Part shown: positions 28,530 to 58,072 of the stretch, piece after piece
How positions within the stretch are numbered: position 1 is the stretch's first letter
Layout of the letters: each line of letters opens with the position of its first letter
Assembly: GCA_024231025.1 (NCBI GenBank)
Contig: JAAEQW010000327.1
Coordinates: forward strand, 16,022 to 80,021
DNA from: Candidatus Omnitrophota bacterium
GTDB taxonomy: Bacteria; Omnitrophota; Gorgyraeia; Duberdicusellales; 4484-171
Length of the DNA: 64,000 nt
Direction: 5' to 3'
Notes under the pieces: model-generated
Seen by the model: only the letters and a program-made list of their open reading frames with translations
Database searches by the model: none
Told to the model about the DNA's origin: nothing
Translations under genes and position numbers: made by a program

Positions 28530-31500
28530 TTAATCACAGAAAGCCAAATCTCTATTTCTTTGGCGTTCAATACTGATAATTTCAAATGTAAACCCGCCGA
28601 AATCGTTAATATCAAATTCGACTGCGTTCGGGATAAAATTATTTATTCCTTCTCCTTGCACATCTATGTTTAATTTATTCGGATTAAAATCGATGCCGCC
28701 GGGGATACCCTTAGAGTGGGCGCCGACTATCCCGGCGGCTTTTGTCGACGCTTTTGAAGACGAGCGGACGTAAATTTCTTTTACCTGCGCCTCATAGGCT
28801 TTTTTGCGCTCAGTCAACTTCTCTTGATCAAAAACTGGCTGATACTCTTCATTGTGAACAACTACTCCGGGCATTGTCCGTAATGAAAATTCTCTTTGCT
28901 TAACTAGCTTAAGACCTAAATCTATATTATCCGGATCATAATTACGAATGATCAATAAGCTTGGCCCGCCTTTAACCGAAAGCTCGTGGTGCTCAAATTC
29001 TCCTCCCTTTGAAGAGAAAAAATCTCCAAGATCTTCATTGTGCTGTAAACTAAGACCTGCTAAATCAACAAATGCCACACCATTAGGTTTTAAAACACGC
29101 TTGATCTCTTCCAACACAAAAACCTTATTCTGAAGATAAGTAGCTACTGCTGGCCCTAAAAATACTACTTCAAATGACCTATCTTTGTAAGGAAGCCCAT
29201 AACTAACATCGGCGGTAATATGGCCTCGCTGCATTTTTTCAACAAACTTGTGCGCTTGCTCTAACGAAAGCTGTCCAACTCCTTTTGTCTCTGCCGCCTG
29301 CTCATCAATAACTGCTTTTAAACTTTCTGCTGAATGAAGATAGTTTTCTTTAGAGATTGCGCTAACGCTATTTAGATGCTTATAACGCGAAAGAAGATCA
29401 TAGACAATTTTTCCTCGGCCAACACCAATACATAAAACATTTTGCGCGCGATTTAAATAGGGCGATATACCAACGGTAATGTCGTTTTGGAAATCTTCAA
29501 TAAAACTATCCAGGCCGCGACCAACATTCTCCTCTCTATAAATTGGTTGCTCAAGTTTTAGAAGCGCCTGGACCCTCTTGATGCCCGGCCGACATCTTTC
29601 AATTAAGGCTTGACCGCGAGAAGTGGATAAATGTTGCTGGGCTGCTTTGTCGTATTCAAAAATAGCTGCACTACCTTCATCGGCATAGGAACCCCTGCGC
29701 ACAATTAATTCAGCAATCCCGTGAGCAATTGTTTGCGCTGATGCGCCGTCATGAACATAAACGATTTTTCTCCTGCGGCCCGTATGTTCCTGATGGCAAA
29801 CTCCTTTTTTATCTTTGTATAAATAACCTCGACCTTCAGTATCAAGAACAATGATCCTAACCTCTCCAATTTCCTCCGTGGAAACAATAATATCCGGTTT
29901 AAGTTTAAGATCATCTTGCGGCAACCAAGAGCTCTTCCCTCCAGCAACTAATTCTCTAAGTTCAATGATTCTTTCCTGATACATCTTACTCTGAACTTCC
30001 GGCCGCTGGGCAATAAGCCTAAAGATCTCTTTATGGAAAGGTGCCTGTTGGGCTATGCCTTGGTCGGAGATGGCGTAGCTTTGTGCCGGCACCAAGATGT
30101 TAGCCTGCTCGATCAAATCGGACCCAGCAGCTGCAAAAGGCATAACTTCTCCAAAATCAGGTATTTTGCGCGCAGCAGGATAGTAAATGATTTTTTCCGT
30201 TGCCACGAGTTCTTTTTTGATTTGAGGGTGTTGGCGCCAGTTGAGCATCCCCTCGATTTCTTCTCGGGAAAAAGTTAAATTGATAAAGCTTTCATCTTCT
30301 TTTAATTCTTCAATACGGTTTTGCCTTTTCGTTACCTCTTGTTTTTGCGGTTGCGCAATTGGAATTGTTAGATCAAAGGTTCGAACTAACAACAGCAAAA
30401 CCAAATCTTCATAGGCCTGGATGAATTTTTTTCGTTCATTTTTATCCTTTATTTTTTCTAAAATTTCTTTTCTGGTTTCCAAATAATTTAAACCGTCTAA
30501 GATTCTCTCGATACTTCCTTTTCTTTGCAACAAAGCATTCACCTGACCGGAAACTAAATTAGCGTGAATTTTTTCCGTTAGCGCCGAAAAGAAACCCGGA
30601 AAAAATGGGCTAGTAATTCCTAATCGTTGTTCAGCAATAAGGTAGATACCAAAATCCGGATCACCGATTTCGTGAGAAACAGAAATATTTTCTTCTTCAT
30701 TTTGATCACGATAAATATTATTTAATTTTTTTATGGCTCGAACTTTAATTTTTCGAACCCCCTCTCGAGTTGAATAAAAATACTCTTTCGCGATTCGAGC
30801 TGAGGGAATTTCGCACTCCTCTTTTGAACCATTAGTGCCAATTTCTTGTAAAACTTGTCTGCTCACACCCTTCCCATAATGCAATTTTAATACCACCCGC
30901 TCCTGAATTGTTAATCTCGCCAAAAGTTTAGATGAATACTGCTGGTTCAATAAAATCTCGTGTATCTCTACCGGAGAAGACACCTTTGGTCTAAACCTCT
31001 CTTTATGGACTACCCCTTTTCTTTCTCCTACTAAAGTCTCAAAAGAAAGAGCGGGAAAAAAACTACGAAACTCTTTTAAGTGCTTAATCTTTTCCTTTAG
31101 GGTAGCGGGAGGGTCCGTGTTAATCTCTTGGGCTATTTCTTCCAAGGTCGGTCGCCGGTAATCGCCACCCTCGCGCAATCGCTGAAGAATCTTTTTCTGC
31201 GCAGCTTCAGTGTCATGACTTAAGCGTCGAAAATGTTCGGGCATTTTCAAGGCATAAAGCGAGCAGTGAAGCAAGAAATTAACCATCTCTTTCTGCATCT
31301 TTATATGGGAGTAGGTCGTAAAAAGAACACCCTTGCGCCAATCAATTTTATCTACTGCGATCGATAAACCTAAATTCGCGGCTGCAATTAACTCCTCTTT
31401 CACGATATGCCTATTTTTACCTTGATCAGCAAAGATTCCCGCTGTTTGAGCTGCCCAGCGTAAATGCCCGCCAACAACGCACTCCTTAATTCTCCCGTAT

Positions 31501-34500
31501 CTAGCCGTGGTCTTTGAGTCAACTTTTTTTCTAATCGCTTCTGCTTCAGACAAAAGTAAAACTTCTTCAGCACGGCTTAACTTAAAATCAGAAAGAAGCG
31601 CTTTTCCTTGCAAATCATATGTCACCTCTGATCGATAGCGACTAAGGATATTCTCTACTTTTTTGTCGCGCTTTTGAAAAAACTCACCACTTACAATAAA
31701 CCGATTATCCCGCTTTCCATCCTCACTGATCTGGCCAAACCCCAAATCCGCCCCTTGCTTGATTTGCCAAAGCGGTTGAAAAACTGCCTCGATTGCTTTT
31801 CTTGGTATTCCTTTGGCACTATTTTTAGCGCAATCCATCATTGAAAATAAACCATTACGAAACAATTCAAGTTCAATCGCAACTTGCGCGGTTAACTCTT
31901 TTTCTTTATCGGCAAGCTTTTCGGCTTTTTCGTGATACGTTTTAATAGCGGCAACGTCTTCTTCTTGGCGAATATACTTGCCCTGGACATCATAGTTTTT
32001 TGCGCGAGCACGGAATTCAGTAATTTCATGAGTAATTTGCGCAGCAGTTACTCCTTCATGAACATAAACACGCCTGCGTTCTCTTCCAAGATGGCCGTGA
32101 TGCTTAGTGTCTTTTTTATCTTTGTATAAATAGCCTTGGCCTTTGGTGTCAAGGATAACAACTTCAACATCGCCAATTTCGGTCGGAATTGTAAAATCAA
32201 TATTGATTGGCAAATCCTGATCCGGTGCAATTCTTTCGTCCCCCTCAACCTTCACCCGTAACTCTTGGATTTTATCTTTCAGCCCTTTGCCTTGCAGTTC
32301 CGGTCGCTGGGCAATAAACTCAAAAATCTCTTTATGGAAAGGTGCCTGTTGGGCGATGCCTTCGGTGGAGATTGCGCCAACTGATTCGATTTTTTGCAAG
32401 TGCAATTGAGGTTGGAAATCAATCGTAGCAAGGGTTTTTGGAAGTTTACCCGGTAACACAATGTTCAGCCTCTGCGCCAAGAACAAGTTAAGCGCTCTGG
32501 CGCGTTCGCGGCGAGCCTCTTTCATTTGTTTTTTTCCATTATAAGAAAAAGAGTCTTTTTTACCATTGAGAAAATCAAATTTCATTGACGCTTCTTGAGC
32601 AGCTTCAAAAACCCTCTCTCGTGATAATAAATCTCTTTCTATCTTATCTTCGATCGCGGCAACTAAAAGAAGAAACGTCGCGCTTTCCATGCAAATATTC
32701 TCCTTGAACGTCTCGATTAAAAATAAATCTATATTTGTGTCAAAACAAAAATTATTCTTGGCAATTGTTTTCATTATTTCTGGTCGATCAAAAGTTAAAA
32801 TCAAATAAGAAAACATATCTTTTTCTTCTTCGGAAAGTGAAATAGCATTAGTTTTTGTTTCCGCACGATATTGCTTCATAAACTGAGGCATTATCATTTT
32901 TATTTCCTCATAATTTATTGCCTGTCTGTCTAGTCCAAAAAGAGACCCGATATCTTCTTGTGTCCATCCTAAAATTCTTAACTTTAAGACTACTCTTCTT
33001 CTGCCTGGCTTTACCCTGGCTAAAACGCGAAACATCTGTCTAGCCCTCTCCCAAAGCATTACATCACCAAAAGGAGACAAATTTCTCGAAGGCACTAAAT
33101 CTTTACGAGTTAGCGCTGTTTCTTCGCTAATTGAAGCGTCTAGCGGAACCGCCGAAGAATACATCTTTTCAACGGCAACAACCTGCTCTGCTGTGACTTT
33201 GCTTTCTTTCGCAACTTGCTCTATTGTTGCTTTTGCACCTAAGCCTTTTCTTGCATTTTTTATGGCATAGATTTTGTCGGTGTGCTTTCTATTAACCGGA
33301 CCGCCTTGTTCATCAAAAGCATTTCTCATTTTTCCATTGGTTGATCGCTTTATAAAACTGGCAAATAGGGCTTCACCGTTTGGGTCAAATTTCTTTTTTC
33401 GCATCACCCGTAATACTTCTAGCTCGCCTACAGCAGCTAGATCATCAATATGAGTTAATTCCAAGTTAATTTTTCGCGCACGCCATATAAGCAATTTTTT
33501 CAGCGAACTAATTACACACGCCTCGATTTCTTTTTTGAGACGATTATCTGCAGTTGAATAATATACAGTAAAAAGAATTTGCTCTTCTTCTCTGTTTAAA
33601 GCTTCTCTAAGATAGGCCTCATTGGGATGATCCGAGGTTTTGCGATCGGCGAGAATTTGTTCGGCTTTCGTGCGCAGGCGCATGTTTCCTTTGCTTTTCT
33701 CATCTGATGCGCCTACTGCACCCCCTGTATGTGCACCTCCAAAATTTTTTGTGCCCGAAGTAGTAGGAAATTTTAAAGTAAATGTAGTCCCTTTGCCAAG
33801 GGCACTTTCGATTTCGATTTTTCCTCCGACATTGTCCATTACCTTTTTAACAAAATAAAGGCCCATCCCTGTGCCGCCAAGGCGCCCGGTAAAACCTTTT
33901 TCAAATAACAAACTATAAATATCTCCGTCGCTTGCCTTTTTGCCTTTGGCTACTATTCTTTGTATTCTTTCTAAAACATCTTTCTCGATTTTATGCACAG
34001 AAACTTCGGACTCGTTATCGGTGGAAATTATTTCTTGGGCTTTCTCTAATATTTTTTCTTTATCAATCCCCACACCAGAGTCGCTTATCCGCACTATCTG
34101 ATGCACTTGCCCAGCTTCGGTTTGGCTCTCAATGGTTACAGCGACTTCTTTAACGTGAGCTGCCTGCTGAGCGTTGATAAACAAATTAAGCATCATAATG
34201 ATAAAGCTATTCGGACTCACCGCAATAATCGATTCTTTGTCGTTATCTTTTTTAAGATTAACCTCTAGTCCAATTCCGGCAACCATCTCAGCTGCCAAGT
34301 CAACTAACGGCGCCAACACTGCATATCCAAGTTGTTTTTGCCTAAGCTCAGAAACAAATTTTCTAAATCGTTTAAGCGAAACAATCGCCTGACGATTTCG
34401 TTTAGTGTTAACAATCTCCCCTCTGGTCAATCCAAGTTCCTTTAAAAATTCTTTCGGCACCCTTTGTTTATATTGTGATGCCCTTTTATGAAGACCAATC

Positions 34501-36434
34501 GCTTCAGACAAAATCTCTTCAATCAAAACAAAAAGCTTTGCGGTTAAATCCCCGCGTTTCTCCAGCGAAGCCGTCTGGGTCAAATTCTGCGTTGCTACCC
34601 ATAATCCGCTAAGCTGCATCCTTTCTTTTACTAGTTGCTTTCCTGCATCATCGTGCTCAAACACTTCGTTGTAATAATCAATTGCCTTAAACACAACCGT
34701 CATCGTGTTTGCAATAAGATGAGTAAAGTCCCGCATTTTTATAAGCTCACTTGAGATATAGCCGCTATTTTCTCTATTCTGTGTTGTTCCTTCTATTTGT
34801 TTAAGAATTTCTCTTTTCACGCGTATGTACCATATTTGCTTTTGAATTTCCTCGGGACGCTCTTTGCTGATCGCTTCTTGTATGTTCCTGAAATTCTCTT
34901 CAAAAAACGGCTGATTGCGCCTAACGATGTCGGCCCTTGATAGATTTCTGATTACACTGCTTTGGCGAGAATAAGCTGAAGTAAAAGTTACAGTTCCAAA
35001 AAAGCTTTCATCGGGTATATTTTCAAGTATAGTTTTTAAGAATACCGACTTGGCAGTTGTTCTGCCAGAAGTCTTTTTCCCCTCGATGTTTAGCGCACCT
35101 AGCTCAGCGGTCATTTTAACTGGTTTTGGCACCTGTTTGTCACCTGAAACAACTTCTACTGTTTCGGCAATTTCACTGGCAAAAAATCCGCCGGAAAAAT
35201 ACTTACGATTAACGTGTTTATTTAGAATTTCGTCAAAATCCCTTCGAATATAGTTGTACACACCTTTTTTGTAGGCCTCTAGGTACTGATTATAAATTTT
35301 TTCTTTTATTTGGGGGTCCGTGCCTTCAATACCTTTGGTTTTGTTTTTACCGATATATATTTTGTCTAATAGGTGTGTGGTTAATTCGTCTTCCGGGGAC
35401 ACGTACCGTTCTCGGCCTTCGGCCTGCGCTTTCGGTACATGTCCCCGTAGGCTGTCAACTGAACGGCGAAGCCGTTGCTTAAACCAGGTTGCAAGAATCA
35501 AGGCATCGTAAATTTGGCGTAGGTAAGCGAACTGTTTACCATTGTTTATTTCCTCTTCGATCATCGGAAGGATAATCTCTTTCGCGATTTGGAATGATAT
35601 ATTGCTAGAGGGCACGGCACGCCGTGCCCCTACGATATTTAAAATAGGGACTGTCCCCTCTTCTGCCAGGGATTGATCTTTGGTCGGCGCCTGTCCCTCC
35701 CCTACGAATTGGTCTATGGTCTCTGGTCTATGGTCTCTGGTCTGATTACGTTGCTGTGCAACGTAATCTTCCTCCATCATCACTTTGAGATGATTATCAC
35801 CCAGAGTTGCCCTATCTCCTTGTTCATACACAATTGCTCTCTCAGGTACAATCCAAATTTTGTTAAAAGTGTTGATCGCAACATTGCTTGTGCCATAAAG
35901 CTGGTACGCTTTGTTGTGCACTTTTTTCCAGAATTGTTTTCCCAATGGGTTATCTGGATAAGTTAAAGAAGCCAGAAGCTGCTTTAGGATGTAGTCTTCC
36001 CCTAGAAGATCTTTACCCATATCAGTTAAACCTAGTCCATGAGCAACAACCGTATCCTTCTCATAAGGCGAAAGGTTAACCCAGAAATCTTCTTCGGGAA
36101 TGGTTAACGCAGATAAAAAGTATTTTATTAACCTTTGGCCCTCTGTTCTCAATTCTTTATCGCTATGGTTTGAATCGCCTTCACTTAATATGAAGTCAAA
36201 TTTGAATGGGTTGTCGGCGTAAAGCTTAATCCCCTTTAAGGATAAAGGGTTATATCTAGCGGTCAAGCCAATCAATTCTGTTGGCGCAGGCATATATGGC
36301 AGTGCTGAGGCATAGCCTGCTGAGTCTTTTGCCAAATAAACCCCAATGGTTGAGGCTATAAAGGCAGCCAGAATAAAGAATGCTACCATCCTAAACGGAG
36401 CACTAGCTCGTTTCTTACATAAATATAGGGTCAT
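28530..36434 (-). CDS. Giant (2634 aa) membrane-anchored multidomain protein. It carries the N-terminal domain shared with two paralogs, two sigma-70-like modules, an HATPase_c domain, an internal 120-aa duplication, and a class I SAM methyltransferase-like domain.
   Basis: N-terminal transmembrane helix. Conserved WVNLSPYEKD domain. FTTYSHIKMQKEMVNFL and FASFIKRSTNGKMRNAF region-2-like segments and HTH region-4-like segments. HATPase G-box GGTGMGLYFVKK (~33750-34150). Methyltransferase motifs VLCIGVGRG and LKPNGVAFV (~28950-29460). Confidence 0.7.
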   Translation of the reverse strand: MTLYLCKKRASAPFRMVAFFILAAFIASTIGVYLAKDSAGYASALPYMPAPTELIGLTARYNPLSLKGIKLYADNPFKFDFILSEGDSNHSDKELRTEGQRLIKYFLSALTIPEEDFWVNLSPYEKDTVVAHGLGLTDMGKDLLGEDYILKQLLASLTYPDNPLGKQFWKKVHNKAYQLYGTSNVAINTFNKIWIVPERAIVYEQGDRATLGDNHLKVMMEEDYVAQQRNQTRDHRPETIDQFVGEGQAPTKDQSLAEEGTVPILNIVGARRAVPSSNISFQIAKEIILPMIEEEINNGKQFAYLRQIYDALILATWFKQRLRRSVDSLRGHVPKAQAEGRERYVSPEDELTTHLLDKIYIGKNKTKGIEGTDPQIKEKIYNQYLEAYKKGVYNYIRRDFDEILNKHVNRKYFSGGFFASEIAETVEVVSGDKQVPKPVKMTAELGALNIEGKKTSGRTTAKSVFLKTILENIPDESFFGTVTFTSAYSRQSSVIRNLSRADIVRRNQPFFEENFRNIQEAISKERPEEIQKQIWYIRVKREILKQIEGTTQNRENSGYISSELIKMRDFTHLIANTMTVVFKAIDYYNEVFEHDDAGKQLVKERMQLSGLWVATQNLTQTASLEKRGDLTAKLFVLIEEILSEAIGLHKRASQYKQRVPKEFLKELGLTRGEIVNTKRNRQAIVSLKRFRKFVSELRQKQLGYAVLAPLVDLAAEMVAGIGLEVNLKKDNDKESIIAVSPNSFIIMMLNLFINAQQAAHVKEVAVTIESQTEAGQVHQIVRISDSGVGIDKEKILEKAQEIISTDNESEVSVHKIEKDVLERIQRIVAKGKKASDGDIYSLLFEKGFTGRLGGTGMGLYFVKKVMDNVGGKIEIESALGKGTTFTLKFPTTSGTKNFGGAHTGGAVGASDEKSKGNMRLRTKAEQILADRKTSDHPNEAYLREALNREEEQILFTVYYSTADNRLKKEIEACVISSLKKLLIWRARKINLELTHIDDLAAVGELEVLRVMRKKKFDPNGEALFASFIKRSTNGKMRNAFDEQGGPVNRKHTDKIYAIKNARKGLGAKATIEQVAKESKVTAEQVVAVEKMYSSAVPLDASISEETALTRKDLVPSRNLSPFGDVMLWERARQMFRVLARVKPGRRRVVLKLRILGWTQEDIGSLFGLDRQAINYEEIKMIMPQFMKQYRAETKTNAISLSEEEKDMFSYLILTFDRPEIMKTIAKNNFCFDTNIDLFLIETFKENICMESATFLLLVAAIEDKIERDLLSRERVFEAAQEASMKFDFLNGKKDSFSYNGKKQMKEARRERARALNLFLAQRLNIVLPGKLPKTLATIDFQPQLHLQKIESVGAISTEGIAQQAPFHKEIFEFIAQRPELQGKGLKDKIQELRVKVEGDERIAPDQDLPINIDFTIPTEIGDVEVVILDTKGQGYLYKDKKDTKHHGHLGRERRRVYVHEGVTAAQITHEITEFRARAKNYDVQGKYIRQEEDVAAIKTYHEKAEKLADKEKELTAQVAIELELFRNGLFSMMDCAKNSAKGIPRKAIEAVFQPLWQIKQGADLGFGQISEDGKRDNRFIVSGEFFQKRDKKVENILSRYRSEVTYDLQGKALLSDFKLSRAEEVLLLSEAEAIRKKVDSKTTARYGRIKECVVGGHLRWAAQTAGIFADQGKNRHIVKEELIAAANLGLSIAVDKIDWRKGVLFTTYSHIKMQKEMVNFLLHCSLYALKMPEHFRRLSHDTEAAQKKILQRLREGGDYRRPTLEEIAQEINTDPPATLKEKIKHLKEFRSFFPALSFETLVGERKGVVHKERFRPKVSSPVEIHEILLNQQYSSKLLARLTIQERVVLKLHYGKGVSRQVLQEIGTNGSKEECEIPSARIAKEYFYSTREGVRKIKVRAIKKLNNIYRDQNEEENISVSHEIGDPDFGIYLIAEQRLGITSPFFPGFFSALTEKIHANLVSGQVNALLQRKGSIERILDGLNYLETRKEILEKIKDKNERKKFIQAYEDLVLLLLVRTFDLTIPIAQPQKQEVTKRQNRIEELKEDESFINLTFSREEIEGMLNWRQHPQIKKELVATEKIIYYPAARKIPDFGEVMPFAAAGSDLIEQANILVPAQSYAISDQGIAQQAPFHKEIFRLIAQRPEVQSKMYQERIIELRELVAGGKSSWLPQDDLKLKPDIIVSTEEIGEVRIIVLDTEGRGYLYKDKKGVCHQEHTGRRRKIVYVHDGASAQTIAHGIAELIVRRGSYADEGSAAIFEYDKAAQQHLSTSRGQALIERCRPGIKRVQALLKLEQPIYREENVGRGLDSFIEDFQNDITVGISPYLNRAQNVLCIGVGRGKIVYDLLSRYKHLNSVSAISKENYLHSAESLKAVIDEQAAETKGVGQLSLEQAHKFVEKMQRGHITADVSYGLPYKDRSFEVVFLGPAVATYLQNKVFVLEEIKRVLKPNGVAFVDLAGLSLQHNEDLGDFFSSKGGEFEHHELSVKGGPSLLIIRNYDPDNIDLGLKLVKQREFSLRTMPGVVVHNEEYQPVFDQEKLTERKKAYEAQVKEIYVRSSSKASTKAAGIVGAHSKGIPGGIDFNPNKLNIDVQGEGINNFIPNAVEFDINDFGGFTFEIISIERQRNRDLAFCD
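29715..30075 (-). repeat. Intragenic duplicated module, copy 2 (GIAQQAPFHKEIF...YLYKDKK...YVHDGA), within the giant gene
   Basis: Protein-level repeat of ~120 aa. The DNA retains a near-identical 50-nt stretch (ctttatggaaaggtgcctgttgggc...) at 30020-30075 and 32328-32385. Confidence 0.7.
32025..32385 (-). repeat. Intragenic duplicated module, copy 1
   Basis: Same ~120-aa module as 29715-30075. Confidence 0.7.
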
Positions 36435-46566: not shown

Positions 46567-47106
46567 ATGCTTATCTCATATATTCAGGTTATTATAGGCA
46601 ATTTACGGACCCGCCACAAGAAAAAGTTTAATTGTTATAAGACAAATGGAATTATCAATTATTGGGATGATGTCCCAAACCAATATAATAATATCGAAAG
46701 GGGTCAATATATTATCACGCCTAACCATGTTCATGGAATTATAAATATCGTAGGGGTCGACCTATGTGTCGACCCGGATAAAAATAAAATATCAAATGAC
46801 GATCATAAAATAAATCATAACGGGCGGACACAGGGGTCCGCCCCTACAATATTATCATTGTCTAATATAATCCAACGTTTAAAAACATTAACCACAAAAA
46901 AATATATTGATGGTATCAAAAATAATAATTGGTCACCATTTGCCAAACGTCTCTGGCAACGTGATTATCATGACCATATTATTCGCAACAAAACATCATT
47001 AAACAAAATACGTGAATATATAACCAATAATCCCATAAATTGGCAATTTGATGTTGAAAATCCTGACAGAGTTGGTAAGATGGAATCAGATACAATTACC
47101 GCATAA
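46567..47106 (+). CDS. REP-associated tyrosine transposase-like (IS200/COG1943-type HuH Y1 transposase), carrying an in-frame GTAG-palindrome pair
   Basis: HuH motif NHVHGII. Catalytic-Tyr region LWQRDYHDHIIRNKTSLNKIREYITNNP. Confidence 0.55.
   Translation: MLISYIQVIIGNLRTRHKKKFNCYKTNGIINYWDDVPNQYNNIERGQYIITPNHVHGIINIVGVDLCVDPDKNKISNDDHKINHNGRTQGSAPTILSLSNIIQRLKTLTTKKYIDGIKNNNWSPFAKRLWQRDYHDHIIRNKTSLNKIREYITNNPINWQFDVENPDRVGKMESDTITA
46750..46847. repeat. Pair of inverted REP-like hairpins (GTAG + GC-rich palindrome ... palindrome + CTAC) embedded in-frame in RAYT-like gene 1
   Basis: gtaggggtcgacctatgtgtcgaccc at 46750-46775 and gggcggacacaggggtccgcccctac at 46822-46847. The 5' GTAG is the E. 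coli REP hallmark recognised by RAYT proteins. Confidence 0.7.
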
Positions 47107-47160
47107 CAACGCAATCCAGCGGACGCTGCTTCGCATCGCCACTGATCTCGGATGTTATGT
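47101..47160. repeat. Structured intergenic palindromic repeat (REP-like), copy 1 (cataacaa...tgttatg)
   Basis: Outer inverted repeat cataaca/tgttatg around a GC-rich core. One of six related copies between genes of the 46.5-50.5 kb island. Confidence 0.65.
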
Positions 47161-47168
47161 AAAAAATT

Positions 47169-47561
47169 ATGAAAAATAAAATTCTAATCACTACATTGTT
47201 TCTCTTATTTTCAATTTCTTCATCGGCATTTTCCGAACAGATTAATCCTGAAAAATTCATAATTGATCTAATTAAAGCCGCTCAGGATAATAATTTAAAA
47301 GAAATTGAGGCTTATGCTGATCTTAAAATGATAGCATCGCATCCTCGTCATTCAATGGAACCAAAAGAATTTATTGAATTTCTTAAAGGTATTGATTTAG
47401 AAAGAATCGAATTTCAAAAATTAGTTAACCGTGGAATAGAAAAAGGAAGAATCCTGGTGAGAATTTTAAAACCTATTAGTTGCGATTTTGAATTAGAAGT
47501 ACAGCCGGATTCAACAACAGAAATAGGAACAAAAATACGGGTTGTTGACGTTCATCCGTGA
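47169..47561 (+). CDS. Hypothetical secreted protein (signal peptide)
   Basis: N-terminal hydrophobic signal ILITTLFLLFSISSSAF. Flanked by REP-like repeats. Confidence 0.4.
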   Translation: MKNKILITTLFLLFSISSSAFSEQINPEKFIIDLIKAAQDNNLKEIEAYADLKMIASHPRHSMEPKEFIEFLKGIDLERIEFQKLVNRGIEKGRILVRILKPISCDFELEVQPDSTTEIGTKIRVVDVHP

Positions 47562-47569
47562 ACAAAAAA

Positions 47570-47643
47570 CATAACAAGGCACTGCAGCTGACCCTACTAC
47601 GCCCCTTCGGGGCTTCGAAGGACAGCTGAGTTTGAATGTTATG
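47570..47643. repeat. REP-like structured repeat, copy 2, with a UUCG-tetraloop hairpin (gccccttcggggc)
   Basis: cataacaaggcactgcagctgacc...ggacagctgagtttgaatgttatg. Confidence 0.7.
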
Positions 47644-48364
47644 TGAAAAAAATAAAATGATTAACGAACTATTTAAATCTTCTTTAACAGGGCCACTATC
47701 TTACAAAATTTTCTCCTTTGTATTGATCGCTGCGATCTTTATTTGGATCTTTTGGGGAAATAAAATTGCCCAAAAACAAGAGGCGAGAAAAAATCAAAAA
47801 GCCGAACAAGCTGAGCAGATTAAACAACGCCCTTGGGTTGATGTGGACTTTGAAATAATGACCCCCCTTTCTTATGACAACAAAGAATGGGATGCTGGAA
47901 CACGCTGGCATGTGACTATAAAATATCGTTTAGAAAATGTCGGGAAAACACCTGCAAACAAAGCTTCTTTTATGGCAAAAATGATTCCATTGACTTCTAG
48001 CGTAAACGTTACTCAGGAATTTGATGCCCTTTACAAGTATCAACAACAACTAGCTAAGCATAATATGGGTTTCGGACAAACTCTTTTTCCAGAAAAAAAG
48101 CGCATTGTTAAATTTGTCTTGAATGGGAATCCAAGAATTTTTGACGAAATTAAAAAAAATCCAAGTGGCTATGCTGGGCATTTTCTTGTTATTGTTTGTG
48201 CAACCTATAATTCAACTTATAATAACGAGTTATTCCACACAGCAAAAGCGTTTCAACTATTCAAGCGTTCTGGAAATAAATTCATAGATCCAAATGGGGA
48301 AACCATTCCTGTAAAGGATCTCGCAATTGTACCGCATCCTATACAAGGGAGCCGTGCAGAATAA
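47636..48364 (+). CDS. Hypothetical membrane protein
   Basis: One N-terminal transmembrane helix (IFSFVLIAAIFIWIFW). No recognised domains. Confidence 0.4.
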   Translation: MLCEKNKMINELFKSSLTGPLSYKIFSFVLIAAIFIWIFWGNKIAQKQEARKNQKAEQAEQIKQRPWVDVDFEIMTPLSYDNKEWDAGTRWHVTIKYRLENVGKTPANKASFMAKMIPLTSSVNVTQEFDALYKYQQQLAKHNMGFGQTLFPEKKRIVKFVLNGNPRIFDEIKKNPSGYAGHFLVIVCATYNSTYNNELFHTAKAFQLFKRSGNKFIDPNGETIPVKDLAIVPHPIQGSRAE

Positions 48365-48391
48365 GGTAAATCTAATTGAATATTAAAAACA

Positions 48392-48455
48392 CATAACAAA
48401 TCACTGCACCTGACCAAAAAGCTGCGCTTTTCGGCAGGTGAGTTCTGATGTTATG
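48392..48455. repeat. REP-like structured repeat, copy 3
   Basis: cataacaaatcactgcacctgacc...ggcaggtgagttctgatgttatg. Confidence 0.65.
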
Positions 48456-48484
48456 ATATACAAAAACAAGGACAAGGAGAACAA

Positions 48485-49327
48485 GTGAAAAAAACAAATT
48501 TAACAGCCGTCGCCTTTCTTTTGCTTTTTGCTGTGGCATTATTTTCTTTCGCTGAAACAAAAACAGAAGAACAATTATCTTTAAGCAAAGCACAATCTTT
48601 TTTAACGCAACAGGCTTTTGATAAAGCAATTGAACAATTTCAAAAAGTCTTATCATTAAATCCACAAAACGATCAAGCTCTTTTTAGCATGGCCTTTTTA
48701 TCCTTTCAGCTGCACCAAGACTATGATAAATCTCTTTATTATGCGAGCAAGGTTTCTGATAATTTTAAAAACAAATATCTTGCAAACATTATTGCAGGCC
48801 ATTGCTTAGCAGCAAAAGGCAAAACCGATGAAGCTATATCAAACTTTGAAATAGCCTTAAAAACGGATCCTGACGATGAGGACTCCTTGATGCTTTTAGG
48901 AACTTTATATTTTAGCGAGAAAGGAAACCCTGCAAAAGCAAAACATTACTTTGAGAGACTTCTACAAGTTTCGCCAAACCATGAAGATGCTCTTTTAGGT
49001 TTAGGCTTGGCTGCACAATCCGACAATCAAACAATAAAATATATGGAAAAACTAATAGAAATAAACCCAAATCATCCTGACGCATACGCAACATTAGCAA
49101 CCTCATATGGAAATAAGGGGGACTTTGACACAGCAATCACAAACTATAAAAAAGCTATAAAACTATCTCCTAACGATCCCTATAACTATCAAGGCTTAGG
49201 GCTATGCTACAAGGATAAAGGAAACTCTGAAAAGGCTCTAGAATTTCTTAAGAAAGCAGCAGAAATAAATACTGATAGCAACGTTGCAAAAGAAATTGAA
49301 GCAGAAATTGAGAAGTTAAAAAAATAA
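48485..49327 (+). CDS. TPR-repeat protein with a signal peptide
   Basis: Multiple TPR repeats (AxxxLGxxYxxxGxxxxA pattern) after an N-terminal signal sequence. Confidence 0.7.
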   Translation: MKKTNLTAVAFLLLFAVALFSFAETKTEEQLSLSKAQSFLTQQAFDKAIEQFQKVLSLNPQNDQALFSMAFLSFQLHQDYDKSLYYASKVSDNFKNKYLANIIAGHCLAAKGKTDEAISNFEIALKTDPDDEDSLMLLGTLYFSEKGNPAKAKHYFERLLQVSPNHEDALLGLGLAAQSDNQTIKYMEKLIEINPNHPDAYATLATSYGNKGDFDTAITNYKKAIKLSPNDPYNYQGLGLCYKDKGNSEKALEFLKKAAEINTDSNVAKEIEAEIEKLKK

Positions 49328-49330
49328 AAT

Positions 49331-49392
49331 CATAACAAGGCACTTCAGCTGACCAAAACCTGCGGTTTCGGCAGCTGAGTTTGAATGTTATA
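49331..49392. repeat. REP-like structured repeat, copy 4
   Basis: cataacaaggcacttcagctgacc...ggcagctgagtttgaatgttata. Confidence 0.65.
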
Positions 49393-49399
49393 ACAGATA

Positions 49400-49795
49400 A
49401 TGAAAACAAAATATAAATTCACTTTTTGGGGTATAATCTTCATTTTGTTTGGAACCTTTGGCTTTTTGGCAAACACTCTTTGTTGTTATTTCTATTTCTT
49501 CGAGAAACAACTACCTACCGGCAAAATGGGATCTTTTTTAAGCTTTATGTGTGCACCATCCACTCATCTGTCTTTATCTTCTGCTTGGCCAAGTCCTTGG
49601 AGTATGTGCACATTAATGGTTGCTACTACTTTAATATTTTCCTTATTTATTTGGATAGGATTATTTTCATTAAAAAAAGATGGCTCACATTTAAAGGCAG
49701 ATATGAATCCTGAATTAAAGCAAGCTCTTGAAAATAATGATTTTGAAAAAGCGGCTTTATTGCGTGACCAAGCAAAAAGAAAACAAGACATCTAA
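49400..49795 (+). CDS. Hypothetical membrane protein
   Basis: Two or three hydrophobic segments. The 3' end overlaps the next ORF, so the boundaries are uncertain. Confidence 0.3.
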   Translation: MKTKYKFTFWGIIFILFGTFGFLANTLCCYFYFFEKQLPTGKMGSFLSFMCAPSTHLSLSSAWPSPWSMCTLMVATTLIFSLFIWIGLFSLKKDGSHLKADMNPELKQALENNDFEKAALLRDQAKRKQDI

Positions 49796-50342
49796 CAAAT
49801 CACTACAGCTGACTAAAACCTGCAGTTTTGTGCAAGTGATTAAGGAAAATATATTTGGTGAAATAAAAAATAATGGGATATCCGTAGGGGCCGACGGCTG
49901 TCGGCCCTCTATAGATGTAAAATTAAATGAATTTGGTTTAATTGTTAATGACGAATTAAAAAATTCTGAAATTATTCGAAACGAAATAAAATTGAACGAT
50001 CATGTAATTATGCCAAATCATATACATGGAATTGTTATAATTCAAAATAATATCATAAAGGGCCGACAGCCATCGGCCCCTACGGATAAAATTAATCAAA
50101 AACAATCATTATCATTATTTGTCGCCGGTTTTAAATCCTCGGTAACAAAACGCATCAACACCTTACGTAATACACCAGGGAATCCTGTTTGGCAAAGATC
50201 GTTTTATGACCATATTATCCGCAACAAAACATCATTAAACAAAATACGTGAATATATAACCAATAATCCCATAAATTGGCAATTTGATGTTGAAAATCCT
50301 GACAGAATTGGTAAGATGAAATCAGATACAATTACCGTATAA
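49728..50342 (+). CDS. REP-associated tyrosine transposase-like, second copy, with an embedded GTAG-palindrome pair flanking the HuH-coding segment
   Basis: HuH motif NHIHGIV. Catalytic-Tyr region WQRSFYDHIIRNKTSLNKIREYITNNPINWQF. The C-terminal 45 aa is nearly identical to the first copy. The true start is probably downstream of 49728. Confidence 0.55.
   Translation: MKIMILKKRLYCVTKQKENKTSNKSLQLTKTCSFVQVIKENIFGEIKNNGISVGADGCRPSIDVKLNEFGLIVNDELKNSEIIRNEIKLNDHVIMPNHIHGIVIIQNNIIKGRQPSAPTDKINQKQSLSLFVAGFKSSVTKRINTLRNTPGNPVWQRSFYDHIIRNKTSLNKIREYITNNPINWQFDVENPDRIGKMKSDTITV
49792..49850. repeat. REP-like structured repeat, copy 5 (partial), lying inside the 5' part of the second RAYT ORF call
   Basis: ctaacaaatcactacagctgactaaaacctgcag... 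Confidence 0.5.
49876..50083. repeat. 24-bp terminal inverted GTAG-palindromes flanking a 160-bp AT-rich segment that encodes the HuH motif of RAYT-like gene 2
   Basis: gtaggggccgacggctgtcggccc at 49876-49899 and gggccgacagccatcggcccctac at 50060-50083. The two are reverse complements with one mismatch. Confidence 0.7.
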
Positions 50343-50465
50343 CAACGCACTGCCACGTGAGCCCTTCGGGCAACGTGGCCTACGTCCCGCAAAAACGGGA
50401 CTGCGGCAGCCGAAGTCGCGTTTGACAACAAAGTTGTCATCACGCGATGAGTTTGAGTGTCATAC
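50338..50465. repeat. REP-like structured repeat, copy 6 (long, multi-hairpin; a UUCG tetraloop gcccttcgggc inside the stem ccacgtg/cacgtgg)
   Basis: tataacaacgcactgccacgtgagcccttcgggcaacgtgg...gtcccgcaaaaacgggac...gcgtttgacaacaaagttgtcatcacgc. Confidence 0.65.
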
Positions 50466-57590: not shown

Positions 57591-57668
57591 GGCGGGGCCG
57601 ACGAGATTCGAACTCGCGATCACTTGATCGACAGTCAAGGGACTTAAACCAGGCTAATCGACGGCCCC
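57590..57668 (-). tRNA. tRNA-Asp (GTC), CCA encoded
   Basis: Manual fold: acceptor GGGGCCG/CGGCCCC, anticodon stem CTTGA/TCAAG with loop CTGTCGA, T-arm GCGAG-TTCGAAT-CTCGT, discriminator G. Confidence 0.7.
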
Positions 57669-57768
57669 ATATTGTGTTATCTTTTACTGAAATAGATTTT
57701 ATAGTATTTGCGCTTCTTGTCAACCTTTTTAGGCAACTTTCGTTTTCCTCTTCCTTGCTTACAACAAC

Positions 57769-57845
<77 letters not shown>

Positions 57846-57859
57846 TTATTGATTTAAAA

Positions 57860-57945
57860 TGGGCGGGGAGGGAATTGAACCCTCACGTCCGGTAAAGGAC
57901 ATGGGATTTTAAGTCCCAGGCGTCTGCCAATTCCGCCACCCGCCC
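57860..57945 (-). tRNA. tRNA-Leu (TAA), type II long variable arm, no encoded CCA
   Basis: Acceptor GGGCGGG/CCCGCCC, anticodon loop CTTAAAA, variable arm TGTCCTTTACCGGACGT, T-arm GAGGG-TTCAATT-CCCTC, discriminator A. Confidence 0.8.
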
Positions 57946-58000
57946 TCGTTTTCCAATTTGTTTTTTGAATGAACACTTAATTGCTCAAAGGCAAAATTTA

Positions 58001-58072
58001 AGGCGTGGGCCGGACTCGAACCGGCGCATAGCGATTTTGCAGACCGCTGCCTTACCACTTGGCTACCACGCC
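58001..58072 (-). tRNA. tRNA-Cys (GCA), discriminator U
   Basis: Acceptor GGCGTGG/CCACGCC, anticodon stem GCGGT/ATCGC with loop CTGCAAA, T-arm CCGGTTCGAGTCCGG. Confidence 0.75.

Follow-up and report, generated by a model that had tools for sequence, protein, structure and literature searches.

In-frame REP Hairpins in Two Truncated RAYT Genes of an Omnitrophota Bacterium and Their attC-like Cassette Setting

The 64-kb stretch of DNA analyzed here (the window), from a metagenome-assembled genome (MAG) of Candidatus Omnitrophota, contains two genes, referred to as gene 1 and gene 2, that belong to the REP-associated tyrosine transposases (RAYTs, also known as TnpA_REP). Each of the two genes contains, in frame, an inverted pair of hairpins with the characteristics of repetitive extragenic palindromes (REPs), the elements associated with such enzymes (Table 1). 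We read these hairpins as the cognate REPs of a RAYT of subclass 2.4, carried in frame in two tolerant loops of the protein and maintained at the DNA level, with the window holding decayed copies of two sublineages of that subclass, and we place the probability of this reading at roughly 85%. The core observation is real and highly non-random, and reading it as REPs within RAYT genes is correct but already published for the subclass. In-frame REPs being a published hallmark of the subclass, there is little out of the ordinary in the finding except the integron-cassette setting. What is modestly new is a recurrent architecture in which two co-evolving REPs bracket the HuH codons, together with the attC-cassette context.

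The two genes and their hairpins

The first-pass annotation of the window, made by reading the letters, had described hairpins with GTAG or CTAC feet, two per gene and in frame, and all four, which are GC-rich, were recovered. The spacings needed small corrections: the gap in gene 1 is 46 nt (45 as first noted), and the segment between the arms of gene 2 is 152 nt (first given as 160). In gene 1 both arms lie 3′ of the HuH codons, separated by a spacer of 20% GC, and the pair forms an inverted repeat of 33 nt that is 79% complementary. For the 110-nt unit the folding energy is -20.4 kcal/mol (z = -4.5). Because the arms are complementary to just this degree, a seed-based shuffle test of the gene 1 inverted repeat was not significant (11 matched bases compared with a shuffle mean of 10.3), so that for gene 1 the evidence comes from each of the two hairpins by itself and from the z-score of the fold. 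The inverted repeat in gene 2 reaches 34 nt with 94% complementarity and has 32 matched bases, compared with a maximum of 19 in 300 shuffles. It spans a low-GC segment that includes the HuH codons (Table 1), and its single arms fold with z = -3.5 and -2.5. The pattern GTAGGGGYCGAC, allowing at most one mismatch, is found in only these four places in the window. The 3′ arm of gene 1 is also present as an identical 26-nt sequence in an unrelated MAG locus, L169.

The peptides encoded by the four arms (Table 1) are as first described, whereas the suggestion that the 3′ arms share a conserved peptide holds only in part. One 3′ arm is 2 nt longer than the other, and the codon phase at their starts is not the same, so that the common "GR.Q" stems from DNA that is alike but translated in two frames; the "...SAPT" end alone is frame-matched between them. 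The in-gene REP families named in this study are GTAGGGGCCGACGGCTGTCGGCCC, GTAGGGGCGGCCGGCTGGCCGCCC and the two arms of gene 1.

Both genes are assigned from their motifs and alignments to the Y1 HuH RAYT/TnpA_REP enzymes, and within these to TnpA_Y1 subclass 2.4, which Table 1 of Quentin et al. (2018, BMC Genomics 19:475, PMC6006769) defines by the motifs NH[IFV]H, WQ and YIxNNP and equates with RAYT group 4 (Bertels). The text of that paper describes in-frame REP insertions within the gene, generally between HuH and Y, as a unique and predominant feature of the subclass. The cognate REPs of the subclass are described there either as GT[AG]G-footed hairpins whose stem has three G-C pairs at its base or as "double foot" palindromes. 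Both window genes carry the three motifs (W motif WQR at 46954 in gene 1 and at 50190 in gene 2), together with a variable in-frame REP insertion between strand beta3, which bears HuH, and helix alphaC, and all four arms combine GTAG with GGG...CCC stems of 7–9 bp. The GTAG-footed hairpin is present in two inverted copies in each gene, as in REPs and REP doublets forming hairpins (REPINs). The full-length protein of ~194 aa with a complete Y1 core (beta1 to alphaD) is encoded by neither gene, and they are fragments of subclass 2.4 members rather than intact members. Likenesses to the published subclass as it is described in that text include the motifs, the variable beta3–alphaC insertion, the GT[AG]G-footed REPs, the scattered occurrence over many phyla and the 28-nt double-foot palindromes carried by relatives; the window copies differ in being truncated, in lacking flanking REPs and in lying in attC-like cassettes.

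Both window open reading frames (ORFs) match Pfam Y1_Tnp barely over the cutoff, through their C-terminal halves. Their products are 100% identical to database proteins from a Candidatus Omnitrophota MAG, annotated as "hypothetical protein" (gene 1, P0121) and "transposase" (gene 2, P0001). A family profile searched against the PDB matched a single entry, TnpA_REP of Escherichia coli (4ER8). Residues W94, Q95, H101 and R104 and the catalytic Tyr of 4ER8 align with the family and E100 is replaced by D; the text of PMC6006769 gives W94, Q95, H101, R104 and E100 as the set of residues that contact GTAG. The proposal of the first-pass annotation that the hairpins belong to the REP type of substrate on which RAYT-type enzymes act is supported, and the genes have the subclass 2.4 motifs, including the GTAG-reading residues. 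The HuH Y1 fold, a ferredoxin-like beta-sheet with HuH and a Tyr helix, was judged on the full-length homologue P0019 rather than on the truncated window proteins, and is predicted for it. In a Foldseek search, the AlphaFold (AF2) model of P0019, with a predicted local distance difference test (pLDDT) score of 79.9, had 4ER8_A, TnpA_REP bound to REP, as the top match (E = 3e-7), followed by TnpA of ISDra2 and of IS608.

Homology between gene 1 and its full-length relatives begins at ~46660, corresponding to residues 57–61 of P0122, P0124 and P0126 (tblastn), which leaves ~57–60 N-terminal residues absent. In gene 2 it begins at ~49842, corresponding to residue 32 of P0012 (tblastn, in agreement with alignment A1), and ~31 residues are absent. 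An apparent extension of the homology to residue 4 of P0019, at 49758, was rejected as alignment run-on, since P0012 and alignment A1 place the start at ~49842. Given how late homology starts relative to the full-length relatives, both genes lack strand beta1 (residues 21–29 in the P0019 model). As the 5′ ends including this strand are missing, the window copies are probably decaying, inactive remnants with inherited hairpins. A prophage or an IS200-type mobile element was considered and rejected, as neither TnpB nor IS ends are present and the motifs belong to class 2 rather than class 1.

The 3′ ends of the two genes have a history of their own. A 169-nt stretch at the end of gene 1 (46945–47113) is 91% identical to positions 50181–50349 of gene 2 and includes the first bases of the attC-like site downstream, yet the rest of the two genes is divergent and belongs to different sublineages. 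The tail NWQFDVENPDR encoded by this stretch is native to the lineage of gene 1, whereas the clade of gene 2 normally ends in NWEQDIDNLINL. The high identity of the 3′ ends, set against the divergence of the remainder and the usual end of the gene 2 clade, indicates that gene 2 probably acquired the 3′ end of gene 1 by recombination or gene conversion between cassettes.

In-gene REPs across the family

The survey of in-gene REPs covered 169 homologue loci from genomes and metagenomes. A metagenome scan with the gene 2 protein returned only relatives of at most 49% identity, and eight close homologues were added one by one; for two short homologues, P0021 and P0024, there is no genome context on record. 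In a first set, a GC-rich hairpin stands directly after the HuH strand in 65 of 68 genes and is very often a perfect 28-nt double-foot palindrome, GTAGGGGC-N12-GCCCCTAC, in which the inner 12 nt vary among genomes. A perfect stem of 8 bp or more is found in the linker from HuH to alphaC in 117 of 157 genes from many phyla, compared with 5/157 after codon shuffling and 7/157 in a conserved 210-nt core. GTRG and/or CYAC stands directly at the foot in 88 of these 117, and 96 distinct hairpin sequences are represented. REP-like hairpins reach a density of 2.53/kb in the genes and 0.17/kb in flanking DNA, a difference of ~15-fold. Chance or an assembly artefact could be favored only by the fact that the sequence comes from a MAG. 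Independent assemblies from many phyla, complete genomes among them, show the same architecture, and the shuffle controls exclude chance; this explanation can be set aside almost entirely.

The peptides encoded by the hairpins could in principle be the conserved feature, VGxDxC and GRxxSAPT being ancestral functional motifs and the palindrome a consequence of codon choice. VGADGCRP and GGQP[SA]APT do appear conserved within the close Omnitrophota-type clade. Across the family, however, both stop-free frames are used, and the same position encodes such unrelated peptides as VGAHGRAPL, RGGSRTAPT, RGVLQYAPT and VGAIHELPL, with the DNA still forming a GTAG...CTAC palindrome. Even in the close clade, paired non-synonymous substitutions keep the stems and alter the peptide (GRQPSAPT, GGQPSAPT, GGQPAAPT, GGQPATPT), with changes on both sides in 6/8 stem pairs. 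The different codon phases of the 3′ arms in the window, and the position of the REP-encoded segments in loops modeled with low confidence (see below), also speak against a protein-level origin, which we consider very improbable. Alignment to homologues had been named in the first-pass annotation as the comparison that could tell against REPs, should the peptides persist without palindromes, and the outcome was the opposite: the palindromic DNA is kept, and peptide and frame vary. DNA rather than peptide is conserved, because the 96 hairpin sequences are read in different frames and are mostly footed by GTAG/CTAC. The conserved unit, as judged from these comparisons, is the DNA hairpin with its feet, a member of the local REP family, and the peptide is a by-product. 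A further suggestion, that the REP arose from coding sequence, is disfavored: most family members lack the 5′ arm of gene 2, which appears in alignment A1 as an insertion, and hairpin sequences turn over completely between homologues.

REPs of the same kind are found outside the genes. Among 261 extragenic REP-like hairpins, 72 are at least 95% identical to the in-ORF REP of their own locus, and 70 lie within 100 nt of the gene; flanking REPs are present at many homologous loci. At L003, L020, L029, L030, L042, L051 and L076, an identical or nearly identical double-foot palindrome is found right after the stop codon, ~280–330 nt past the in-gene palindrome. As the second palindrome follows the stop codon at these loci, the C-terminal half with the catalytic Tyr lies between two copies of one REP.

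It could also be that the hairpins act mainly in the mRNA, attenuating translation or stabilizing the transcript so as to limit the transposase, and not as DNA substrates. Compensatory changes in the stems suit RNA as well as DNA, E. coli REPs are known to affect mRNA stability and translation, and the lowering of RAYT expression through REP hairpins is a topic of literature cited in Di Nocera et al. (2013, PMC3733652). RNA folding leaves unexplained the conserved GTAG/CTAC feet outside the stem and the symmetric double-foot palindromes; identical copies are found beyond the ORF, to either side of it, and the residues that read GTAG are retained by the enzyme. As the principal function of the hairpins, a role in mRNA is therefore improbable to our minds.

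Several points weigh against the favored reading of the hairpins as cognate REPs maintained at the DNA level. No extragenic REP adjoins either gene within the 64-kb window, so that the flanking REPs of a REPtron (an enzyme gene in and around which its REPs have accumulated) are missing here. All five REPs that the window has of this class lie within ORFs, and from the window no genomic REP population can be demonstrated. Since a hairpin detector selected the sets used for covariation, their figure of 99% paired is circular. The inactivity and expression state of the truncated genes are deduced solely from the absent beta1 strand, and the binding and cleavage of hairpins by subclass 2.4 is extrapolated from the E. 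coli enzyme, a member of subclass 2.2. Lastly, the hairpins would form in mRNA too, and an RNA-level role as an additional function is possible.

Two architectures and their interpretation

Gene 1 represents a "type A" sublineage, in which the two REPs form a doublet after the HuH codons. Its closest relatives, P0122–P0128 (57–68% identical), all have this doublet, which reads VG[VA]DP[RC]VDP, a short AT-rich spacer and GRTQGSAPT; the tail NWQFDVENPDR is also common among them. Gene 2 represents a "type B" sublineage, in which the pair brackets the HuH codons. Its relatives at loci L161–L168 (56–70% identical) all have a "+"-oriented REP that precedes HuH by 129–159 nt and an inverted one that follows it by 44–62 nt. 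The bracketing layout recurs in ~15 independent homologues and is found with quite different stems at L002, L071, L082, L086, L102, L110, L118, L131, L137, L139 and L150–L160. Since the arms of type B pairs have an identity of 0.90 within genes and 0.63 between genes, they evolve in concert, in the manner of a REPIN whose spacer codes for HuH. In the P0019 model the REP-encoded peptides fall in low-confidence surface loops at residues ~40–52 (beta1:alphaA) and 101–108 (beta3:alphaC). The differing module order of the two window genes had been taken at first as a sign of rearrangement at the hairpins; each order is instead conserved within its own sublineage. Genes 1 and 2 represent two stable architectures, neither of them derived from the other through local rearrangement.

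The inverted pair of gene 2 might be regarded as a programmed switch that makes the HuH segment excisable or invertible, the enzyme toggling its own gene. Such a role would suit the REPIN-like inverted arms and their concerted evolution across many genes, as well as a natural deletion variant (P0135, at L169) that has lost the whole HuH segment. Nevertheless, the segment has the same orientation and an intact ORF in the eight close homologues and in about a dozen distant ones, and neither inverted nor empty-site alleles were seen among the loci examined. The single deletion variant is equally explicable as ordinary decay at a repeat, and the ORFs intact across the clade argue against frequent excision. 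We accordingly hold a programmed switch to be distinctly improbable, more so than a main role in mRNA.

The deletion variant itself (L169:4001–4456) has an N-terminus, RKQPRLKGYDYSQ, joined directly to a partly duplicated 3′ REP that is identical to the 3′ arm of gene 1, and everything from beta1 through HuH is gone. The gene is flanked by another, double-foot REP family.

Under the favored reading, in which the hairpins are cognate REPs maintained at the DNA level, a REP would be a single-stranded DNA hairpin with a 5′ GTAG foot that the RAYT/TnpA_REP nuclease, by analogy with the E. coli enzyme, binds and cuts nearby. The enzyme would preferentially act in cis, on folded REPs in single-stranded DNA, and REPs would therefore accumulate in and around its own gene, giving rise to a REPtron. 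In-gene copies would survive only where they are free of stops, in frame and situated in tolerant loops, and they would be kept homogeneous with the local REP family. The type B layout could go further and be a functional design, a compacted REPtron that keeps its own substrate inside the ORF, with enzyme and REP moved together through cassette shuffling by an integron integrase. Behind this proposal are the recurrence of the layout with its co-evolving arms and the cassette-type RAYT locations in the window, L001, L110, L161, L162, L165 and L166. We regard it as rather unlikely, though less so than any of the alternatives weighed above. The type B pair might additionally serve as a site of self-excision or autoregulation.

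Precedents exist for the separate components of this arrangement. PMC6006769 illustrates the insertions by maps only, and its main and supplementary text, as far as searched, holds no mention of an inverted pair bracketing HuH with an arm in the beta1:alphaA loop, or of co-evolving arms; figure S10 of that paper lies outside the text searched. The E. coli REPtron and its TnpA_REP (subclass 2.2; 4ER8; Messing et al. 2012, PMC3479197) share with the genes described here the Y1 HuH fold, W94/Q95/H101/R104 and the Tyr, and the combination of GTAG with a hairpin. In contrast, sequence identity to the E. coli enzyme is ~18%, E100 is D here, and the E. coli gene has no internal REP, its REPs being longer, bulged, extragenic and present in hundreds of copies. 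Like REPINs (Bertels & Rainey 2011, PMC3116915), the pairs consist of two inverted, mutually pairable REPs whose arms evolve in concert. Classical REPINs lie outside genes in many copies and have short spacers that do not code, whereas the spacer here is coding (46 or 152 nt), and that of gene 2 encodes HuH. In-frame palindromes tolerated in protein loops are also described in the text of Di Nocera et al. for REP insertions and, by citation, for the Rickettsia palindromic elements (RPEs). As presented there, such insertions are sporadic and lie in unrelated host genes; here the host gene encodes the cognate enzyme, and the subclass as a whole keeps the position. An example resembling REP/RPE insertions does occur in the window, namely a solitary REP in a 2634-aa ORF (Table 1). 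This solitary REP and the 5′ arm of gene 1 share the 5′ flank AATATC.

These genes bear on two questions: by what means REPs spread, and what keeps RAYT genes in genomes as single domesticated copies. An enzyme gene that contains its own substrate is a natural system for the study of cis-preference, self-regulation and enzyme–REP co-evolution, and as such is already in the literature; the window adds examples from the Omnitrophota and a clear side-by-side case of the two architectures. At present the result is mainly a rediscovery of a known feature, in decayed gene copies.

The attC-like cassette setting

The attC sites of integrons consist of R″ and R′ boxes (AAC...GTT), an unpaired spacer, an L″/L′ stem with extrahelical bases and a variable loop. 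Arrays of such sites that lack an integrase are known as clusters of attC sites lacking integrase (CALINs). Between 46.6 and 50.5 kb of the window, imperfect palindromes of 57–80 nt with the form CATAACAA...TGTTATG are found. Six ORFs on the + strand (starting at 46567, 47169, 47636, 48485, 49400 and 49728) are each followed by a site (Table 1). Within 46625–50462 these ORFs encode the two RAYT fragments, two small proteins without Pfam matches, a TPR protein and a small protein with a UVR motif. In the folds of four of the sites the ATAAC/GTTAT ends are paired and the spacer is unpaired, the inner stem has bulged bases, and the loop is variable. The likeness to integron cassettes and CALINs lies in these co-oriented, promoterless units of a single ORF, each ending in an attC-like site, an imperfect palindrome with ATAAC...GTTAT ends. 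The annotated ORF of gene 2 reads through a degenerate site fused to its truncated 5′ end, and the long putative site after its stop codon was not detected by the covariance model.

Table 1. Features of the window (positions counted from its first nucleotide) and attC-like sites at homologous loci (prefixed with the locus).
Feature	Position	Strand	Details
Gene 1, 5′-truncated RAYT/TnpA_REP, subclass 2.4, type A sublineage	46567-47106	+	Pfam Y1_Tnp, tblastn, alignment A2
HuH codons, gene 1	46723-46734	+	NHVH
REP, gene 1 5′ arm	46750-46775	+	GTAG foot + GGGTCGAC-CTATGT-GTCGACCC; 8-bp GGG...CCC stem, 6-nt loop; read VGVDLCVDP
REP, gene 1 3′ arm, inverted	46822-46847	-	GGGCGGAC-ACAGGG-GTCCGCCC + CTAC; read GRTQGSAPT
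Y motif, gene 1	47011-47034	+	REYITNNP; Tyr aligned to catalytic Y115 of E. coli TnpA_REP
Gene 2, 5′-truncated RAYT/TnpA_REP, subclass 2.4, type B sublineage	49728-50342	+	Pfam Y1_Tnp, tblastn, alignment A1
REP, gene 2 5′ arm	49884-49907	+	GTAGGGGCCGACGGCTGTCGGCCC; GTAG + 8-bp stem, GGCT loop; beta1:alphaA loop; read VGADGCRP
HuH codons, gene 2	50016-50027	+	NHIH; within the 152-nt, 20% GC spacer separating the two arms
REP, gene 2 3′ arm, inverted	50060-50083	-	GGGCCGACAGCCATCGGCCCCTAC, hairpin + CTAC; beta3:alphaC loop; read (K)GRQPSAPT
Y motif, gene 2	50247-50270	+	REYITNNP
Solitary REP, same class	35610-35633	-	aatatcGTAGGGGCACGGCGTGCCGTGCCC; in frame (VGARRAVP) in 2634-aa ORF 28530-36434
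attC-like site, right after gene 1 stop codon	47100-47162	+	fold, covariance model
attC-like site	47568-47647	+	fold, covariance model
attC-like site	48390-48457	+	fold, covariance model
attC-like site	49329-49394	+	fold, covariance model
Degenerate attC-like site lacking an R′ end, joined to gene 2 at its truncated 5′ end	49789-49856	+	weak fold z = -1.1; E = 0.008, outside training set
Putative long attC-like site after gene 2 stop	50338-50462	+	TATAACAACGC...GTGTCATAC; fold z = -5.4; similarity to start of 47100 site
attC-like site beside homologue	L162:5531-5605
attC-like site beside homologue	L162:6088-6165
attC-like site beside homologue	L161:824-886
attC-like site beside homologue	L165:5019-5075
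attC-like site beside homologue	L166:1561-1636
attC-like site beside homologue	L001:2832-2901
attC-like site beside homologue	L110:421-503
attC-like site beside homologue	L082:2050-2130

The attC-like calls come from folds and a covariance model of our own, built from nine sites, and not from the curated attC model of IntegronFinder. A heuristic attC scanner had been discarded, since it gave 0.198 hits/kb in real DNA and 0.163/kb in shuffled DNA and missed sites visible by eye. The covariance model found further sites adjoining RAYT homologues in L001, L082 and L110. In L162, a locus from a complete Omnitrophota genome (CP070837.1), one of the training sites follows the stop codon of a full-length gene, and the 3′ part of a second site can be recognized by eye just upstream of the gene start. 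L161, L165 and L166 have one adjoining attC-like site each. The homologues with adjoining sites are full-length and come from other Omnitrophota, from Planctomycetia and from metagenome contigs.

None of the 19 ORFs screened for an integrase, including those flanking the array, matched Phage_integrase, and the neighbors of the array are housekeeping genes encoding an RNase_T-type exonuclease and a UPF0047 protein. For these two reasons the stretch looks like an integrase-less cluster of attC-like sites between housekeeping genes. Because full-length homologues elsewhere are directly flanked by attC-like sites, RAYT genes of this kind appear to occur as gene cassettes. Our literature search found nothing that links RAYTs with attC sites or cassettes, or Omnitrophota with integrons. 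RAYT genes as integron-type cassettes would link two hairpin-based systems of single-strand DNA recombination and, if the link is true, would suggest a route for the horizontal spread of REP/RAYT systems. The array, the 5′ truncation of both copies and the prior publication of in-gene REPs for the subclass are points that go beyond the first-pass annotation.

An Rfam scan of the window gave nothing at the hairpins and had four tRNAs as its only matches. These tRNAs form a cluster on the - strand at 57593–58072.

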